6,934 nt of DNA from a virus (IMGVR_UViG_2671180828_000012:1-6934); one strand, 5' to 3'; counted from the stretch's first letter, positions 1 through 6,934 are shown. Made by a program: numbers and translations. Notes: generated from the sequence alone by a model not told the origin.

Positions 1-20
1 ATCAGACAGGCAGGATTATT

Positions 21-3000
21 TCAGCGCATATCATAGAGGAGGTCATGGTGGATAAGGGAAAAGAGATTCTTGCAGTACGAAATGCAGCCAGCAACGAATA
101 TGGCGGGATAAACTGTGAGGTGCAGTTTGAAGACGCGGTGAATGAAAAAGGGGAACAGGTATGGCTGCCGTATACTGCAACGGAACACATCGTTCATGAA
201 CAACTGATTCCCCTGCGCCACAAATAACGGCGTGGTGTTGCCGTCCTCCGGGTTAATCATCGCAATACGGTCAGCCAGCAGCAGTATGTTGCTCAGGGGC
301 TGGCCATCAGTATCCTCAATCCCCGCTCCAATACCGGCAACATAGGGTATGCCATTTTTTGTTTTCTGTACCTTCAGCATGTAAAGTGCAGCAAGGTCAT
401 CATTTGTGTCCTTCTGCACGCGCTGTATCTGCTGTATGGTGGCGCTCTGGTCCTCCAGCGTTTTACTGACCGTCTGTGTGATTTCATTGCGGGTTTCGGT
501 GATGGTGGTCTTCATCTCCGCCATCTCATCCGCAAGCTGGCTGTTGTCTATCAGCTCCCACAGCCCCTGAGCCAGATGCAGTTTTCCTATTTTTTCCCGA
601 AACAGCCCCAGATACCCTTCTGCATCATTGCTGGCCCGTCCACTGGCTTCAACAAAAGCAGATTTCCCCACCAGGTTAACGCTGCGTACATAAAACCAGA
701 AATCCTTCCCGGGCTTAATGTGCGGGCCGGAGACAGTCCACTGACTGCCAGTCCCCAGATAACGGGCAGATTTTTCCACCTGTGCCGTGTTCGTGATGCG
801 TTTTTCTGAGAACCAGAATTCAAACTGTACCGTCGGGTCATACACCGCAAGACGCGGGACCGCTGTTATCTGAAAATACCCCGGCGTCAGTTCAATGGTG
901 GCGGGTTTTGCTGGCGCGTTAATCCGGAAGGTGGTGGTGGCCGGTTCGCCCTGCTGGCCATAACTGTTAATTGCCCTGACTGTCAGGGTGTATTCCCCGA
1001 GCGGCAGACCACTGAAACGATGCTCTGTATCCGCAGTGATAGCGGTGGTCACCAGACGGCTGTCTTCTCCGCTTCCGCTGGTCAGTCGCAGACTGAAGCG
1101 CACCCCCTTCACCACCCGCGGCGTGTCCCATTTCGCCTGTGCCAGATACTGGCCGTCAGCTGCGCTCACCTCCACCGTCAGGTGCTGCACTGCCGGTGGG
1201 ATGACGCTGTTCAGGGAGCCTGACTGCGGCTCAAAGCGGGCACCGTTATCCACGATGGCTTCTTTTTCCGGTACGTGCTGCACTGCCGTGATGGCAAAGG
1301 TGCCGTCCGTGTTTTCCCGGATGGAGACACAGCGGAACAGGCGACGACGCAGTGACGGCAGGGAGAGTCCCCATACACCGTATGTCTCCACACCATCAGG
1401 CAGGGTGCTGACCTGTATCCGGTCCGGCGCGGGGTGTGCAGTGATGGCCACGCTCACCGGCTTACCGCTGCCGTTAATCAGGTTCACCGTGGCGGCACCG
1501 GTCTCCGGCAGGGTCACCTCACGGTCCAGTGTCAGGGTGCGGCTGGCGGCATCGATGGACAGGACACGTCCGCCGGTCATGGTCCCGGCATAGTCGTTAT
1601 CACAGATTTCAATAATGTCACCGGGTGTGTGACGCAGCCCCTGTGACCCGAGCGTGAAATCCACCGTCTGCGTTTCCAGCAGTCCGGTCTTTATCACCCA
1701 CAGCCCGGCACGGTGGGCCTGACCGCGACTGGTGCAGCCGAACGCATCCATCTTCAGCAGGTTGCGCCCGTAGCGCAGTATGGCTTCCGGGTCTTCCACC
1801 AGTTCCGTGGAGGTCTGCCAGCCGTTCTGCGGGTCGGTGTAATTCACCTCCACCGCCGTGTGCCGGTCCTTCAGGGCACTGAAGCTGTAGCGAAACCCCA
1901 CGCCGTTATCATCCACCACCACATCGCAGTTGGTGTACGGCCACACCACATCCGACAGGCGGTCCTGAACAAACGTCAGCATCTGGCCGTTCCATACCGG
2001 CATACAGCGCATCGCCGAGCAGAAATCACTGAGAACATCCCACGCCTTACGCTGTTGTGCCAGGTACGCATTGAAGGTCATCCGCGGCTCGGTGCCCCCG
2101 AAGCCATCCGGCACCATCTGGTCGCAGTACTGCCCGATGGCATACAGCGCCCACTTGTCCACATCCGCCGCCCCCAGACGTTTTCCCATGCCGTAGCGCG
2201 GGTGAGTCAGCATGTCCCACAGACACCAGGCCGGATTGTTGCTGTATGCCGGTTTCAGACTGCCGTCCCAGATACCACTGTACGTGCGTTTTTCCGGGTC
2301 ATAGTTTGACGGCACCTGGATGATGCGACCGCGGATATGGTAGTTCACCGTCATCTGCTGACCACCAAACTGCTCCGCATCCACCTGCAGCCCCACAATG
2401 GCCGTGTTCGGGTAGCACTGTTTCACATCGATAATTTCAGTGTACGATGACCAGAGCGTTCTGTTCTGCAACTGGTCCGTGGTGCTGTCCGCCGTCTCCC
2501 TGACCATCCGGATGTTAAAGGGCCGGGGCGGCAGATTATCCAGAATCACCGAGGCCAGGAACTGTGAGGTGGTCTTGCCGTTAATGGTGACGTCCTTTTC
2601 CGTCACCCAGCGACCATTACGCTGTAACTGAATCAGAATCCGGACAGAGGAAGGATTACGGTCGCCCTTTGACGTGGTCTCCACCAGTGACTGCACCCCG
2701 AAGGTCACCCGCAGGCGGTCAATGTTCGCGGACGTAATGGTGCGCGTCACCGGTTTTGCCTTCGTCACTTCCACGCCCAGTCCGGTTTCAGCTCCGGAGG
2801 ACTCAAAGCCTTCAGGTGGTGTCTGCTCCTGCTCCCCGGCGCGCCAGACCGCCGTCACACCGTGTATCACGGGATTACCGTCCGTGCCCGTCAGCGGGGT
2901 TTTGTTCACCAGAATACTCTGCAGGCCTTTCACCGGGCCTTCTATCGGTCCCTCACCAATCGCATCAATCACACTCATCATCTGCGTGGATTTGAGATTA

Positions 3001-3047
3001 TCCTTCGCCTCACGAGGCGTGTGTGCCTTACCGCCACCTTTTCCCAT
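21..3047 (-). CDS. J: Lambda J-like tail tip / host specificity protein, C-terminally truncated (1008 aa versus ~1130 aa in lambda)
   Basis: Translation starts MGKGGGKAHTPREAKDNLKSTQ and is collinear with lambda gpJ as I recall it for ~955 residues, through FVAQGNQLFMNDVF. The last 53 residues (RCSIRQPYLFPFF...) are unrelated and end at TGA 21-23. ATG at 3047-3045 with AGGGGAAGG upstream. Confidence 0.9.
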   Translation of the reverse strand: MGKGGGKAHTPREAKDNLKSTQMMSVIDAIGEGPIEGPVKGLQSILVNKTPLTGTDGNPVIHGVTAVWRAGEQEQTPPEGFESSGAETGLGVEVTKAKPVTRTITSANIDRLRVTFGVQSLVETTSKGDRNPSSVRILIQLQRNGRWVTEKDVTINGKTTSQFLASVILDNLPPRPFNIRMVRETADSTTDQLQNRTLWSSYTEIIDVKQCYPNTAIVGLQVDAEQFGGQQMTVNYHIRGRIIQVPSNYDPEKRTYSGIWDGSLKPAYSNNPAWCLWDMLTHPRYGMGKRLGAADVDKWALYAIGQYCDQMVPDGFGGTEPRMTFNAYLAQQRKAWDVLSDFCSAMRCMPVWNGQMLTFVQDRLSDVVWPYTNCDVVVDDNGVGFRYSFSALKDRHTAVEVNYTDPQNGWQTSTELVEDPEAILRYGRNLLKMDAFGCTSRGQAHRAGLWVIKTGLLETQTVDFTLGSQGLRHTPGDIIEICDNDYAGTMTGGRVLSIDAASRTLTLDREVTLPETGAATVNLINGSGKPVSVAITAHPAPDRIQVSTLPDGVETYGVWGLSLPSLRRRLFRCVSIRENTDGTFAITAVQHVPEKEAIVDNGARFEPQSGSLNSVIPPAVQHLTVEVSAADGQYLAQAKWDTPRVVKGVRFSLRLTSGSGEDSRLVTTAITADTEHRFSGLPLGEYTLTVRAINSYGQQGEPATTTFRINAPAKPATIELTPGYFQITAVPRLAVYDPTVQFEFWFSEKRITNTAQVEKSARYLGTGSQWTVSGPHIKPGKDFWFYVRSVNLVGKSAFVEASGRASNDAEGYLGLFREKIGKLHLAQGLWELIDNSQLADEMAEMKTTITETRNEITQTVSKTLEDQSATIQQIQRVQKDTNDDLAALYMLKVQKTKNGIPYVAGIGAGIEDTDGQPLSNILLLADRIAMINPEDGNTTPLFVAQGNQLFMNDVFRCSIRQPYLFPFFIHRVFKLHLTVYPAIFVAGCISYCKNLFSLIHHDLLYDMR
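45..227 (+). CDS. Hypothetical protein, probable 5' fragment of a gene truncated at the prophage deletion junction (60 aa; last ~14 codons lie in antisense J-homologous DNA)
   Basis: ATG at 45 (or GTG at 48) directly preceded by AGAGGAGG (35-42), a strong Shine-Dalgarno. The ORF is convergent with J and runs ~45 nt past the point where J homology begins (~183), so the C-terminus is probably junk from fusion. No family recognised. Confidence 0.35.
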   Translation: MVDKGKEILAVRNAASNEYGGINCEVQFEDAVNEKGEQVWLPYTATEHIVHEQLIPLRHK

Positions 3048-3150
3048 ACAGCCTTCCCCTGAATAAATTAACCGCCACTTGCCATTCCGTACAGAAGTCG
3101 GATATCCTTCGCCCGAAAAGCATGAAACACATTTCTGCCATGCTAAAGAG

Positions 3151-3186
3151 AAACCCCGGTATCAGCAGATACCGGGGTTTTCTTTC
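3151..3186. terminator. Perfect 13-bp inverted repeat with 4-nt loop, flanked by T-rich sequence on both strands (putative bidirectional intrinsic terminator)
   Basis: aaaccccggtatc (3151-3163), loop agca, gataccggggttt (3168-3180) is a perfect 13-bp stem. It is followed by tctttc on the plus strand and by ctcttta on the minus strand. It lies ~100 nt upstream of the J start codon. Confidence 0.5.
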
Positions 3187-3252
3187 ATGCCCACCGATAA
3201 TCCTGTTGGTTAAAACCGGTAATGGCATAAAAATTCTGAATATCTTCACATT

Positions 3253-3280
3253 TTCACAAACTGACCGTGGCGCGTATAAT
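3253..3280 (+). promoter_or_regulatory. Sigma70-like promoter: -35 TTCACA (3253-3258), 16-bp spacer, -10 TATAAT (3275-3280), with an A/T-rich upstream tract
   Basis: Consensus -10 hexamer TATAAT and a 5/6 match to TTGACA at 16-bp spacing. The A/T-rich stretch 3219-3245 is UP-element-like. Predicted start near G3287. Confidence 0.4.
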
Positions 3281-3286
3281 TTCTCT

Positions 3287-3385
3287 GCGTTAATTTTTTT
3301 GTCGTGATATAAGAATAATTCCTTACACTTAATCTTCGTAACTCTCCCGCAGTTCCTGTCCGCGATCACTGCGGGATTTTTTTAT
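3287..3385 (+). ncRNA. Candidate ~100-nt small RNA (moron-like), antisense to the late tail operon in the I-J intergenic insert
   Basis: Bounded by the promoter at 3253-3280 and the intrinsic terminator at 3345-3392. No ATG-initiated ORF lies between them. The body is AU-rich with C/U-rich tracts (UUCCUUACACUU, CUCUCCC) and ends in a GC stem plus U-tract, as in Hfq-type sRNAs. Ends are predicted, not measured. Confidence 0.3.
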
Positions 3386-3392
3386 TCTTTTT
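3345..3392 (+). terminator. Rho-independent terminator: 9-bp GC-rich stem, 14-nt loop, U-tract
   Basis: tcccgcagt (3345-3353) pairs perfectly with actgcggga (3368-3376), followed by tttttttattcttttt. It is only terminator-like in the plus orientation; the minus-strand flank is not U-rich. Confidence 0.55.
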
Positions 3393-3609
3393 ACCCCTGC
3401 CGCCCGATAACCACGACCTTTCCGCCCCCGCCTTCATCACGGGTGCTGATGTCCTGGGATATACGGCGGGAGCCAACCAGCATTTCACCGGAGATATTCA
3501 CGCAGGGGAAATATCTTTCCCCCTCCGGCGTGCTTACCACGAAGCCGCACGACTCCGCAGGCGCACACCGCCGGGCATGCGCCAGAATCGCTGATTCAGT
3601 CTGTGTCAT
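3391..3609 (-). pseudogene. In-frame fusion remnant of tail assembly genes K (N-terminal ~42 aa) and I (C-terminal ~30 aa)
   Basis: ORF from ATG 3609 encodes MTQTESAILAHARRCAPAESCGFVVSTPEGERYFPCVNISGE, matching the lambda gpK N-terminus as recalled, then MLVGSRRISQDISTRDEGGGGKVVVIGRQG, which resembles the lambda gpI C-terminus (...GEMRVGSRVVSQEISTADEGDGGQVVVIGR). Stop TAA at 3393-3391. The K catalytic region and most of I are missing. Confidence 0.7.
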
Positions 3610-3619
3610 AAACCGGGAT

Positions 3620-4318
3620 TTACTGCGAAAGTTTATTAATGGAAAGGAAACCGCCAAAATTGCCGACATTCCTGCGCAGTTCACACCCGCGCATGCACTT
3701 GCTGCATCTGTCCTTACGGATATCCGTGGTGGGTTTATCGAACTCATCCGCCACAGCCCCGCCCGTGTAACCACACTCATCAGAGCGGTAGGTCCACATA
3801 CAGGTGTTCGCCAGCATGATACGACCGGGAAACAGCGCCCCGTCCGTCTCGGTCGGTGTGGCCAGCACAAACGAGGCCGTCATGGCTGTCAGCTGCGACA
3901 TCTGCTCCACCACCCAGCGGTCACTCAACTCCTGCTCCGGGTCCGCCGCCGGATTGCCCGCAACGAAATTCACCGCATCCAGAAAACGGGCATACACCCG
4001 GCGGCGGACCACCGTGGCCCCCACCAGACTCTGCAGGTCTTCCGCCATCCCGGTGACCAGACCGAACAGATTGGACACCGTCAGCGACGGTCTGGCACTG
4101 CTGCCCTTCCCGCTCATCTCAAAACCGCTGCCGTCAATCGGGTATGCCTGATATTGCCGCCCCTGCCAGGTGACCGGCTCCCCTTTTTCATTCAGCTCAT
4201 TACAGAAAAAATACCGCTCACCACCCTGCACCGTCAGGTCAATTTCCCAGAGTACCACCCGCGGTGACTGCTCTGATTTAACCGACTCGCTCAGACTTTC
4301 TTCGTGAATATCCTGCAT
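3620..4318 (-). CDS. L: Lambda L-like tail tip assembly protein (232 aa)
   Basis: MQDIHEESLSE...VVLWEIDLT...GGERYFFCNE...GNFGGFLSINKLSQ is full length and collinear with lambda gpL. The ATG overlaps the M stop codon (ATGA), as in lambda. Confidence 0.93.
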   Translation of the reverse strand: MQDIHEESLSESVKSEQSPRVVLWEIDLTVQGGERYFFCNELNEKGEPVTWQGRQYQAYPIDGSGFEMSGKGSSARPSLTVSNLFGLVTGMAEDLQSLVGATVVRRRVYARFLDAVNFVAGNPAADPEQELSDRWVVEQMSQLTAMTASFVLATPTETDGALFPGRIMLANTCMWTYRSDECGYTGGAVADEFDKPTTDIRKDRCSKCMRGCELRRNVGNFGGFLSINKLSQ

Positions 4319-4647
4319 CAGTTCACCACCTGCTTAAACTCCGCGCTGAACTCAACGCGCAACATCCCGACCCGCGCAGACCACCCGGCACAGGTCACCT
4401 TTATCTGCCGGTATGCATAGGGTGGCTTCCACAAAAATGCCTTCCAGCCACCGTGCTCTGCCAGGAACGCTTCCAGATGCCGGGCCTCCTCCCGGGTCAC
4501 GGAAAGCGTCACCCTGTATGTTTTCAGGTCAGCATTCAGCCCTGCCGCCATACGCTGTGAGTACCCGTCACCAAAACGCACTTCACGCACCGATGGCTGC
4601 GAGTTCACCTCCATATCCGGCTTCACTTTCCAGCGAAAGGTTTTCAT
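4318..4647 (-). CDS. M: Lambda M-like tail tip assembly protein (109 aa)
   Basis: MKTFRWKVKPDMEV...VRFGDGYSQR...MLRVEFSAEFKQVVN is collinear with lambda gpM. The start overlaps the H' stop (ATGA) and the stop overlaps the L start. Confidence 0.93.
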   Translation of the reverse strand: MKTFRWKVKPDMEVNSQPSVREVRFGDGYSQRMAAGLNADLKTYRVTLSVTREEARHLEAFLAEHGGWKAFLWKPPYAYRQIKVTCAGWSARVGMLRVEFSAEFKQVVN

Positions 4648-5840
4648 CCACCGCTCCCTGATAACATACCGCCATCACGCAACTGCAGCCGGAGTTCATC
4701 CTGTGCCCCCTTGCGGGCCATCTCATACACCGCTTTCATCAGCTGCGGCCCTGCCCGCCCGTTGGGGCCGTCGTTCTGAATCACCACGTGATTGTTCTGA
4801 TTAAAATTAATGCCTTCCGCCCGCCGCATCTGCGCCGGACTTCCGGCACCGCCGACATAACCACCTTCCGCATAGCCCCGCATCAGGCGGTACAGATTGC
4901 CGACACCAATCCGGCTGGTCGCCTCCTTCGTGAAGACAAACTCCCCGCGATGAACAATCCCCGCAGGTTCATATTTACCCCCCGTCCCCGTAAATCCCCC
5001 GGTCGCGAAATGGAAGTTCGCCGCCGCAGCCTGAATGGCCGTCCCCGTGGAGGCAGACGCACCACCACCGAAAGCACCGCCAATGGCGCTGCCGATACTC
5101 CCGACTATCCCCACCATCGCCTGCTTCAGAAAAATCTCTGTCAGCATGGACAGCACAGAACGGGTGAAACCACGCCAGTTCTGTTCGCTGCCGGTCAGCA
5201 TCGCTGCCATATTCTGTGCAATACCGTCAAAGGTCTGCGTGGCCGCGTTTTTAACCTGCGAAAAACTGTCCGTCGCACTTTCCGCCCACTCGCCCCAGCC
5301 GGACTTCATCCCGGCCATCCAGCTTCCACGAAGCTGCTCCTCCGCAGACCAGGTGTTCTTCAGTGCAGATGTGGCCTTCGCCAGCGCAGCCGGATTATCA
5401 CCGTACACCTCACGAAGGCGCTGCTCTTCCGACTCCCGCTGCGCCTGACGGTCGGTGAGTCCGCGGGCTTTTGCGCTGATTGCCGCCTGCTTCGCGCTCT
5501 GCTGCTGTTCAAACCGCGCCGCCTGCTGTGCCAGCTCATTCAGCCGTTTCTGGTGTTCAATCTTGTCGCCCAGCTCAGCCAGCTGGCGTTTGTACTCCAG
5601 CGTTTCTTTCTCATGGGCCAGCAGGGATTTTTCCTGCTCAGATACCATGCGGCATTTAGCGGCATTCATCGTACACTCAACGGTTAGCTCTTCATTCGTG
5701 GCATTCACCTGAAAGGTCCGGGAGTGTAATTGCGTACATTTACCACTGAACGAACCTTCAACAAGAACACGACCACGCTGCAAAATACGGAACGGAATTG
5801 TTCCCTGAAAAGGCTTTACGGTTACCAGTAATTTCTTCAT
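4644..5840 (-). CDS. H: Chimeric tape-measure protein: foreign ~61-aa N-terminal module fused in frame to the C-terminal ~335 aa of a lambda H-like tape measure (398 aa)
   Basis: From SEQEKSLLAHEKETLEYKRQLAELG to the end (...KAVYEMARKGAQDELRLQLRDGGMLSGSGG) it is collinear with the lambda gpH C-terminal third as recalled. The N-terminus MKKLLVTVKPFQGTIPFRILQRGRVLVEGSFSGKCTQLHSRTFQVNATNEELTVECTMNAAKCRM is unrelated. ATG at 5840 has GGAG 7 nt upstream. The listed ORF start at 5858 is a TTG and less likely. Confidence 0.8.
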   Translation of the reverse strand: MKKLLVTVKPFQGTIPFRILQRGRVLVEGSFSGKCTQLHSRTFQVNATNEELTVECTMNAAKCRMVSEQEKSLLAHEKETLEYKRQLAELGDKIEHQKRLNELAQQAARFEQQQSAKQAAISAKARGLTDRQAQRESEEQRLREVYGDNPAALAKATSALKNTWSAEEQLRGSWMAGMKSGWGEWAESATDSFSQVKNAATQTFDGIAQNMAAMLTGSEQNWRGFTRSVLSMLTEIFLKQAMVGIVGSIGSAIGGAFGGGASASTGTAIQAAAANFHFATGGFTGTGGKYEPAGIVHRGEFVFTKEATSRIGVGNLYRLMRGYAEGGYVGGAGSPAQMRRAEGINFNQNNHVVIQNDGPNGRAGPQLMKAVYEMARKGAQDELRLQLRDGGMLSGSGG

Positions 5841-5863
5841 GCATTCTCCGGATAACAAAAATA

Positions 5864-6331
5864 CTAGTTAATACACTGAGTGCGGATATAGTCCTGCGCC
5901 CCTTCCAGTTGCTTCTGCATTGTCATCAACCGCTCTCTGAGGGTGAAATAATCCCGTTCAGCGGTGTCTGCCAGTCGGGGGCCGGTTGCATTATCCACGC
6001 GGGCGGTGCCGGTGGCTTCACGCACGGAACCTGGACAGGTGGCGTTGATACGCAGGCTGCGGCGACCAGCGGCAACGTCAGCGCGCAGAGTTTCATTTTC
6101 AGCTCTCGCATCGGCTAACTCCTTTGTGTATTTTTCATCCAGCGCAACAACATCACGCTGACGCTGCTGCATGTCAGTAATGGTTGTGTTTGCCAGCTCC
6201 AGCTCTCTGGCTTTTTTATCGCGCTGCGCTTTGTAGGTGATGGCGTTATCGCGGTAATGATTCAGCCCCAGACTAAGCACACCACAGGCTACCAGCAGGA
6301 CAATAATCACCACACACAGAACACGGTTCAT
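5864..6331 (-). CDS. Rz: Rz-like i-spanin (inner-membrane spanin subunit, 155 aa)
   Basis: [48 protein letters not shown]...[29 protein letters not shown] is collinear with lambda Rz: N-terminal transmembrane segment then coiled-coil periplasmic domain. ATG at 6331; the longer ORF listed to 6415 is an upstream extension. Confidence 0.9.
5926..6111 (-). CDS. Rz1: Rz1-like o-spanin (outer-membrane lipoprotein), fully embedded in the +1 frame of Rz
   Basis: [61 protein letters not shown] has a signal peptide with lipobox-like AAAC and a proline-rich body, and is collinear with lambda Rz1. Confidence 0.85.
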
Positions 6332-6332
6332 A

Positions 6333-6419
6333 TCACCACCAACGGATTGCCCAGACCAGAACAGCAATGGCCACAATACGAATGGCAAATGCCATTGCCC
6401 GAATAAGTTCAGCACTCAT
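6333..6419 (-). CDS. Possible 28-aa hydrophobic peptide ([28 protein letters not shown]) whose stop lies 1 nt before the Rz start
   Basis: ATG at 6419-6417, TGA at 6335-6333, Rz ATG at 6331. The product is essentially one transmembrane helix. The RBS is weak (AAAAAG) and the frame is open a further ~30 codons upstream without an ATG, so it may be a gene remnant. Confidence 0.2.
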
Positions 6420-6430
6420 CTTTTTAAAGT

Positions 6431-6613
6431 TCACGATTTCAGCGCAATGACCAGTTTTGCCAGCCCATACAGTATCGGAGACACAGCGATACCAACCGCC
6501 ACCCACTTAATAGCAAAAGCCAGCGCTCTGCTGATGTCATCAGTTACTGGCGCTTTCAGTTCAAGGCCGTTTTTCATAGTCAACCTCAACAGAATTCGTT
6601 TATACTTTTCCAT
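6431..6613 (-). CDS. Small tail-anchored membrane protein (60 aa) at the position where a lambdoid lysis cassette carries its holin; family not recognised
   Basis: ATG at 6613-6611 preceded by AAGGGAGAAC. Product MEKYKRILLRLTMKNGLELKAPVTDDISRALAFAIKWVAVGIAVSPILYGLAKLVIALKS has a basic soluble N-terminus and a single C-terminal transmembrane helix. Stop TGA at 6433-6431. It does not resemble lambda S or phage 21 S as I recall them. Confidence 0.45.
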   Translation of the reverse strand: MEKYKRILLRLTMKNGLELKAPVTDDISRALAFAIKWVAVGIAVSPILYGLAKLVIALKS

Positions 6614-6646
6614 GTTCTCCCTTGCCTTATCCAAGGTCAGAAACAC

Positions 6647-6690
6647 AAAACCCCGCTTGCAGCCAACAAACGGGGTTTTTACTTTTATTC
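6647..6690. terminator. GC-rich hairpin flanked by T-runs on both strands (bidirectional intrinsic terminator), ~30 nt upstream of the 60-aa ORF
   Basis: aaaaccccg (6647-6655) pairs with cggggtttt (6671-6679) around a 15-nt loop, followed by ttacttttattc on plus and by ttttgtgtttctgacc on minus. Its position relative to the lysis genes recalls lambda tR', but no convincing upstream late promoter was found. Confidence 0.4.
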
Positions 6691-6702
6691 ACTTAGTTTT
6701 TG

Positions 6703-6934
6703 TTAGTTCGCAGGATTTCGTGTTATCCGTCCGTGTGAGCAAACCGCATTTTTCAGCAAAATATTCTGCTTATCTGTCAATTCCCCAGCACGCCAGCGCA
6801 CTCTCCTGGTCGCGACGGGATACCTGACCGTAACAGTTGTTTGAGCGAATACGGCAGTCTCTGCCACCGTCCTTAATCCACCAGCGAATCGCTTCGCATG
6901 CTCCCCTGCGATCACCTGCATTAATTCGTCTGTA
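6703..6934 (-). CDS. 3' end of an ORF entering from beyond the right edge (at least 76 codons); unknown function
   Basis: Open frame from the window edge to TAA at 6705-6703 (...ELTDKQNILLKNAVCSHGRITRNPAN). In a lambdoid layout this slot would hold the Q antiterminator or a nin-region gene, but I see no Q-like zinc-finger motif. The internal ATG at 6921 has no Shine-Dalgarno. Confidence 0.25.
   Translation of the reverse strand, partial: TDELMQVIAGEHAKRFAGGLRTVAETAVFAQTTVTVRYPVATRRVRWRAGELTDKQNILLKNAVCSHGRITRNPAN

Follow-up and report, generated by a model that had tools for sequence, protein, structure and literature searches.

The DNA stretch analyzed in this study (the window, 6,934 bp) corresponds to the reverse complement of an entire draft contig (CDQN01000124.1; assembly GCA_000938575.1), and window position 1 is therefore a contig end. 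The minus strand carries lambda-type tail genes, namely a truncated tape-measure gene, M, L, a K-I remnant, and a 1008-codon open reading frame (ORF; 21..3047) which opens with a canonical J N-terminus. An ORF of 60 residues is located on the plus strand at 45-227. An Rfam search of the window returned no match.

Homology to the J gene was examined by megablast against 5,426 complete E. coli genomes, where it covered window positions 182-1200 and never extended below 182 in 1,995 records. BLASTP alignment of the 1008-aa ORF with the intact 1157-aa J of an orthologous prophage (L001, described below) revealed 939 identities over 955 positions (98%), covering residues 1-955, with no match afterwards. 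These J codons occupy 183..3047 (minus strand); they span the hub, FNIII, and Ig domains as well as the alpha-helical shaft, and probably end within the central straight fibre, of which the first part remains. The ORF closes with 53 foreign codons (24-182; 21..182 including the stop codon, minus strand), which are antisense to the 5' end of a DUF4376 gene, its Shine-Dalgarno (SD) sequence, and the 3' end of the tail-fibre gene stf. A total of 202 residues are missing when compared to the 1157-aa J of the orthologous prophage, and approximately 177 when compared to the 1132-aa lambda J. A preliminary description of the locus had placed the end of J homology near position 183, about 180 residues short of lambda J, and had regarded the last 53 codons as the antisense of the plus-strand ORF; the protein alignment, which fixes the breakpoint after residue 955 (182-185), and the DNA mapping agree with it on all three points. 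In an exact-protein look-up, the 53-residue tail was confined to products of the rearrangement described below.

Pfam analysis of the J ORF matched PF24801, PF13550, PF24421, and PF24489, all with E <= 1e-36, and the domains FNIII-A_GpJ, Phage-tail_3, Ig_J, and Ig_J_second are intact. Phage_Tail_Tip (PF09327) was matched at profile positions 2-84 of 139 only. The receptor-binding domain Ig_GpJ_C (PF12421), which occupies residues 1027-1157 of the intact orthologue, was absent from the truncated J by Pfam, as anticipated in the preliminary description. A comparison with structure chains of lambda gpJ gave E = 0. The domains of lambda gpJ are arranged in the order of hub, two FNIII domains, alpha-helical shaft, central straight fibre, and receptor-binding domain (PMC11101478). 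Because the break lies inside the Phage_Tail_Tip match and upstream of the receptor-binding domain, it is probably located in the central straight fibre. As the complete central fibre and the C-terminal Ig domain are missing, the 1008-codon ORF would be classified, judging from its sequence, as a truncated member of the TipJ/gpJ family, i.e. a pseudogene. It resembles lambda gpJ/TipJ (PDB 8IYK, 8XCJ/8XCK) in that residues 1-955 retain the shaft and every hub, FNIII, and Ig domain and reach into the beginning of the central fibre, and in that the gene comes after M, L, (K, I) in both. It differs from this family (PF13550, PF24801, PF24421, PF24489, PF09327, and PF12421) in lacking the distal half of Phage_Tail_Tip and the whole of PF12421, and in ending with 53 unrelated residues.

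On the other side of the break, window positions 1-185 match the 3' end of stf and the start of the DUF4376 gene with 100% identity (E = 3e-91) in 11 listed complete E. coli genomes. Among the 5,426 complete genomes, 14 records matched this segment at >=99% and 40 genomes had any match; in most of these 40, genes annotated as "prophage tail fiber N-terminal domain" and "DUF4376 domain-containing protein" were found together under the match. At the DNA level, nothing similar to window 1-200 was found in phage GenBank records. The last 11 codons of stf and its TAG stop (34-36) are located at 1..36 on the plus strand, inverted relative to J and 100% identical to L001 8001-8036, and the remainder of the gene lies beyond the contig end. 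Translation of this segment (IRQAGLFQRIS followed by the stop) yields the C-terminus of the 404/406-aa stf ORF present on a longer contig (L003, see below), and the full stf protein contains the Pfam domains phage_tail_N and Collagen. The SD sequence AGAGGAGG (35..42, plus strand) overlaps the stf stop and is followed by the ATG of the DUF4376 gene at 45. Window 34-47 is identical to the intact loci, in which the SD sequence and start codon of the DUF4376 gene likewise come directly after the stf stop (the same layout in intact L001 and L011).

The plus-strand ORF consists of the first 47 codons of the DUF4376/phrog_1141 gene (45..185, 100% identical to L001 8045-8185) and a read-through tail of 13 codons plus stop (186..227), which is a meaningless antisense sequence of J. 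Residues 4-49 matched positions 2-41 of the 194-position phrog_1141 profile (E = 9e-10), so the ORF is a fragment and not a complete small protein. No Pfam match was obtained for the 60-aa ORF, and the DUF4376 domain (residues 81-188 of the full protein) lies outside the fragment. The full-length product in intact loci has approximately 202 aa, or 223-224 aa if counted from the upstream start that PGAP selects. It matches phrog_1141 ("tail fiber protein") over its full length (E = 4e-80) and shows 37-45% identity to P-Eib ORF-191 and to coliphage proteins with a tail fibre or tail fibre assembly annotation. P-Eib ORF-191 is a DUF4376/phrog_1141 relative, and the family is variously annotated as "tail fiber protein" or "tail fiber assembly protein". 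Homologues of the plus-strand ORF are about 194-223 aa long, not 60 aa, and the full-length relatives measure 202-223 aa. The ORF is thus a fragment of the prophage's own DUF4376/phrog_1141 gene, i.e. phage DNA and not host DNA. Like the DUF4376/phrog_1141 proteins encoded after stf in lambdoid prophages, it has the family N-terminus and the native SD sequence after the stf stop; it differs from them in that only 47 of approximately 202 codons are present and the domain is missing, the other 141 codons being located 1.5 kb away in the opposite orientation. The near-perfect SD sequence and plausible N-terminus pointed out in the preliminary description are real, being 100% identical in intact loci, and the SD sequence is just the native translation start of the split gene. 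The two homology blocks found by BLAST, 1-185 and 182-3490, overlap by 4 bp (182-185). Both show near-perfect matches over hundreds of bases, which is far beyond chance.

Gene order in the orthologous prophage and in the rearranged contigs

The reference L001 belongs to E. coli S1-CAM-01-A and contains an orthologous prophage at the same chromosomal site (potB). Its genes are arranged on one strand in the order of M, L, K, I, J (1157 aa), lom, stf (404 aa), DUF4376, and a ykgJ-like gene, after which the host genes potB, potA, pepT, roxA, and phoQP follow. In strain 55989, a J-lom-stf-DUF4376-ykgJ-like module with the same order is located at a prophage end at the tRNA-Ser/hya site. This arrangement corresponds to the lambda-like gene order J-lom-stf-tfa and was taken as ancestral in this study. 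Since the ancestral state is represented by an orthologous prophage of 97.6-98.4% identity, the breakpoints given here may be off by a base or two.

Window 182-3490 is the reverse complement of L001 5482-2174, and window 1-185 corresponds to L001 8001-8185 in forward orientation with 100% identity. An exact-protein look-up identified the same 1008-aa ORF on two longer contigs, which allowed the locus to be extended leftward. L002 is part of a 127-kb metagenome scaffold (ERZ28581908), and L003 is a 14.5-kb contig of GCA_000939695.1, in which the reverse complement of 1697-8630 equals the window with one mismatch. Three consecutive segments of L002 could be mapped onto L001: 2741-8222 corresponds to L001 1-5482 (forward), 8219-9763 to L001 8185-6641 (reverse, 100% identity), and 9760-17714 to L001 8229-16185 (forward). 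L003 has the same structure as L002 relative to L001. Thus, 1158 bp (L001 5483-6640), comprising J codons 956-1157 and most of lom, have been lost; 1545 bp, extending from the final 117 bp of lom through its terminator and the whole of stf to nucleotide 141 of the DUF4376 gene, have been inverted; and a second loss removed 43 bp of the DUF4376 gene (L001 8186-8228). Beyond the inversion, the 3' remnant of the DUF4376 gene (141 codons, annotated as an ORF of 134 aa), the ykgJ-like gene, and potB retain their original orientation. The gene stf is still present directly to the left of the window; it is intact (404 aa, DNA identity of 100%) and lies in flipped orientation. The joint within the window is hereafter referred to as junction A, and the joint at the far end of the inverted block as junction B.

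Based on these data, window 1-230 very probably represents junction A of a local inversion-plus-deletion in the tail-fibre end of a defective lambdoid prophage beside potB. The preliminary description had recognized a rearrangement scar in a prophage, which is borne out by the mapping of L002 and L003 onto L001, but several of its details need to be revised. It had interpreted the scar as the prophage boundary, where a simple deletion fused J tail-to-tail with an unrelated, natively convergent gene, either host DNA or a leftward-transcribed accessory gene, and had considered the side-tail-fibre genes absent. Within the 230 bases alone, two convergent ORFs overlapping at their 3' ends are compatible with such a deletion. 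However, the native orientation of the fragment is that of J in every intact locus examined, where the DUF4376 gene follows stf. Leftward of the window, the longer contigs show the inverted 1545-bp block with stf and the lom remnant and then the rest of the same DUF4376 gene in its original orientation; the host flank potB lies approximately 2.3-2.4 kb beyond the junction, separated from the scar by the DUF4376 remnant and the ykgJ-like gene, and the genes on either side of the junction belong to one and the same prophage. What has been lost is most of lom and the C-terminus of J, and not stf. The simple-deletion model is refuted by this mapping, and we consider it to have very little chance of being correct.

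Two further scars were observed in the window, with overlaps of approximately 4-6 bp between the flanking homology blocks. At the second scar (3485..3494), about 1.1 kb has been deleted and most of the tail genes K and I removed: window 3494-4560 corresponds to L001 1067-1, which leaves a gap relative to the block 182-3490. L002 has the same J scar but intact K (247 aa) and I (193 aa) genes, indicating that the inversion preceded the K-I deletion. At the third scar (5641..5644), DNA from downstream of the lysis genes abuts the last 334 tape-measure codons. Tape-measure identity is limited to residues 537-870, its homology ends at 5644, and lysis-region homology covers 5641-6929. Because the end of the tape-measure gene is joined to DNA beyond the lysis genes, all head and proximal tail genes have been lost.

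Junction sequences and alternative explanations

The sequences of junctions A and B are CATGAACGATGTGTTCCGTTGCAGTATACGGCAG and AAACTGCACGCCAGCAGGAACGTACGGAAGCG, respectively. Exact-match extension showed that the parental sequences have four bases in common at both joints, namely TTCC at junction A (182..185; TTCC as read on the J strand, GGAA on the plus strand) and CAGC at junction B. A random joint would have an overlap of >=4 bp with a probability of 0.016, and two such joints with a probability of 2.4e-4.

Junction A was found in GCA_000938575.1, GCA_000939695.1, and the metagenome scaffold ERZ28581908. One further sample was reported to have the same contig as the window. Junction B was found in L002, L003, and L006, a 90-kb metagenome contig (ERZ27246823). 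The assemblies carrying the junctions comprise at least four independent ones, with different contig naming schemes. Neither the 5,426 complete E. coli genomes nor, for a 34-mer across the junction, the GTDB species representatives, IMG/VR, and JGI metagenomes contained junction A; the absence of 34-mer matches indicates that it is rare. The carriers differ by approximately one mismatch in 3.5-6.9 kb, and such near-identity fits a recent event that would have occurred in one lineage. Two sets of candidates were rejected during these searches. A match in O157:H7 FRIK944 (H55), which appeared to span the entire window, consisted of two neighbouring prophages of a different structure that the hit-merging rule had joined. 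Contigs containing the 134-aa DUF4376 remnant were considered as intermediates with junction B only, but three of the five (L007-L009) had the normal gene order, with the gene otherwise disrupted.

We weighed several other explanations against the local inversion-plus-deletion. One is that the junction is a chimera created during short-read assembly: it lies 181 bases from the end of a 6.9-kb draft contig, which makes up the whole window and terminates within stf, it is adjacent to a repetitive collagen-like gene, and it occurs in no complete genome. However, the identical junction was found 5.9 kb and 10 kb inside two contigs of other samples, one of them the 127-kb metagenome scaffold, and the complementary junction B is present in those contigs as well as in the 90-kb contig. 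The occurrence of the same junction in at least four independent assemblies argues that it is not an artefact, and the position of the joints many kb from any contig end in two contigs makes an assembly chimera very unlikely.

Another explanation is that the truncated J (J', 955 J residues plus a new 53-residue tail) is a retained, functional, domesticated protein. This would be consistent with an ORF that is identical in all carriers, one of which has intact K and I. Yet the carriers differ by so few positions that identity reflects recent common origin and not selection; the tail is antisense junk, and in the lineage of the window K, I, most of H, and all head genes have been deleted. Retention of J' for a function is therefore regarded as highly improbable.

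Invertible segments are known in the tail-fibre regions of E. coli phages and prophages, and the flipped block does contain a tail-fibre gene, as do the Din-family segments (Mu G/Gin, P1 C/Cin, and e14 P/Pin). A programmed, invertase-driven tail-fibre switch captured in its other orientation was thus also considered. No inverted repeats were found at the breakpoint pairs 5482/8185 or 6640/8228 of L001. Din-type crossover cores of the AAACCnnGGTTT type were absent near the breakpoints, and their total count was at chance level. Neither an insertion sequence (IS) nor an invertase gene was present among the called genes of the region in L001, L002, and L003, and no serine invertase gene was found between J and potB or tRNA-Ser. 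Moreover, 1158 bp and 43 bp have been lost and two genes destroyed with no exchange of alternative exons, and the inverted orientation occurs in 0 of the 5,426 complete genomes. Unlike Din-family segments, which have crossover sites (approximately 26 bp, AAACC-NN-GGTTT core), an invertase, and alternative exons, the segment described here has none of these features, is accompanied by deletions, and exists in one fixed orientation. The probability of a programmed switch is considered to be close to nil. Finally, a large chromosomal inversion between two prophages was rejected, with an inverted block of only 1545 bp beyond which the same prophage continues.

Possible mechanism of the rearrangement

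The local inversion-plus-deletion probably originated from illegitimate, microhomology-mediated recombination, as suggested by the sequences at its joints: there are 4 bp of microhomology at each of them, no long homology, and no mobile element. The most economical scenario would be two template switches within one replication event. Synthesis would have proceeded forward through J to L001 5482, switched to the opposite strand at 8185, and copied back to 6641; after a second switch, synthesis would have resumed at 8229. Alternatively, the same product could have arisen in two steps, by a reciprocal inversion and a single later deletion across one of the joints. The mechanism is read from the end product alone, and the one-step and two-step routes give the same sequence. 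An intermediate with only the inversion, which would encode the same 1008-aa ORF, was not seen among the contigs from the exact-protein look-up, although this is weak evidence.

It is conceivable, albeit doubtful, that the paired joints are the footprint of a single MMBIR/FoSTeS-like event in a natural E. coli lineage; less likely still, J' with its new 53-residue tail may have been retained for a function, e.g. as an assembly-poisoning or exclusion factor. The arrangement resembles FoSTeS/MMBIR-type rearrangements and RecA-independent short-homology deletions in E. coli in its two 4-bp joints, an inverted segment that takes the place of a larger interval, and the lack of long homology; it differs from them in being known here from the product sequence only.

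Consequences for the prophage

The rearrangement is predicted to leave a J' in which 53 nonsense residues take the place of the distal central fibre and the receptor-binding domain. A consensus match scan placed a terminator-like hairpin just ahead of the inverted stf and detected no promoter-like site from junction B up to this gene. The gene stf would now be oriented against late transcription and located behind the lom terminator, and is probably silenced. J', stf, and the split DUF4376 gene are all likely to be pseudogenes without function. For annotation purposes, the 1008-aa "J", the 60-aa ORF, and the 134-aa "DUF4376 protein" (WP_248784249.1) all derive from broken genes and need to be labelled as pseudogenes. 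No functional tail tip is possible from this prophage.

In other lambdoid prophages of E. coli that have become defective, such as Rac, DLP12, Qin, and the Sp/CP-933 remnants of O157, morphogenesis genes have also been lost progressively by internal deletions, leaving remnants next to the integration site; here, three scars are found within 7 kb. The present scar differs from these in that it is an inversion flanked by deletions, and not a plain deletion or an IS insertion, and in that it is confined to a small lineage. The gene families involved and the decay of prophages by illegitimate recombination are well known, and this particular inversion-deletion is unmatched in the complete genomes searched. 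The scar is of an ordinary kind, lineage-specific, and neither represents a new genetic element nor opens a new biological question. The two junction sequences can be used as a lineage marker for the few carrier strains. As a clean natural example of an inversion with flanking deletions via 4-bp microhomology, the locus illustrates the decay of lambdoid prophages.

Deletion scars in the tail operon

Besides the J scar (the inversion-deletion junction that truncates J), two further joints were found among the tail genes of the window. In window 4644-5858, only residues 537-870 are left of the 870-aa tape-measure protein, and at 5641-5644 this remnant abuts DNA that is natively located downstream of the Rz/Rz1 lysis genes, with the two homology blocks overlapping by ~4 bp. 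Therefore, the head and proximal tail genes are all absent. This joint was not found in any complete E. coli genome. At the second joint, window 3485-3494, ~116 nt from the start of tail gene K run straight into ~100 nt from the end of tail gene I; ~1.1 kb has been lost, and the BLAST blocks have up to 6 bp in common. Because L002, a longer contig with the same J scar, is without this K-I deletion, the latter must have occurred after the J scar.

Between I and J lies an AT-rich spacer of ~340 bp (window 3048-3390), a place at which lambda is not known to have one. Within this spacer is a perfect GC-rich hairpin, AAACCCCGGTATC...GATACCGGGGTTT (about 3148-3185), which has T-rich runs on both strands and looks like a bidirectional terminator within the late operon. 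This feature is conserved in the intact orthologous prophage (L001), and Rfam gave no match here.

Side-tail-fibre repeats and the DUF4376 gene

Just to the left of window position 1, stf encodes collagen-like repeats (8865-9280 of L003, a longer contig carrying the J scar), a Gly-X-Y array whose numerous self-matches are shifted by 45-bp steps. These repeats probably account for the stopping of the short-read contig of the window 36 bases into stf.

With regard to the DUF4376 gene that follows stf, the RefSeq start (L001 7982-8653) lies 63 nt upstream of an ATG at a strong SD and gives a product of 223-224 aa and a 55-nt overlap with stf. Translation from that ATG (L001 8045-8653), located 9 nt past the stf stop, yields a 202-aa product that fits the phrog_1141 profile starting at its position 2 and agrees with many entries in the databases. 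Of the two, the start giving the shorter product is probably correct. In three other samples (L007 4001-4609, L008 470-1078 and L009 65-756), the gene occupies its normal place after stf and is broken in two: the upstream piece is a short ORF, of 37 aa in L007 and L008 and of 88 aa in L009, and the other is the same 134-aa ORF as on the contigs with the J scar; the L008 gene differs from that of L001 by substitutions only, with zero gaps. The DUF4376 gene is inactivated independently in these samples.

Right end of the prophage

Prophages of this type carry a ykgJ-family cysteine-cluster gene at their far right end, on the opposite strand (L003 10554-10940, minus strand; L001 8796-9125; L011 9796-10124). 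Since it is present both at potB and at tRNA-Ser/hya, which are distinct integration sites, the gene travels with the phage in a moron-like manner; the copy in strain 55989 (L011) is frameshifted. On the ykgJ side, potB directly follows the prophage (L001 8796-10153 and L003 10554-11911), and the interval that separates potB from the ykgJ-like end gene lacks potC. Judged from this end, the arrangement suggests that the prophage interrupts the potABCD operon.
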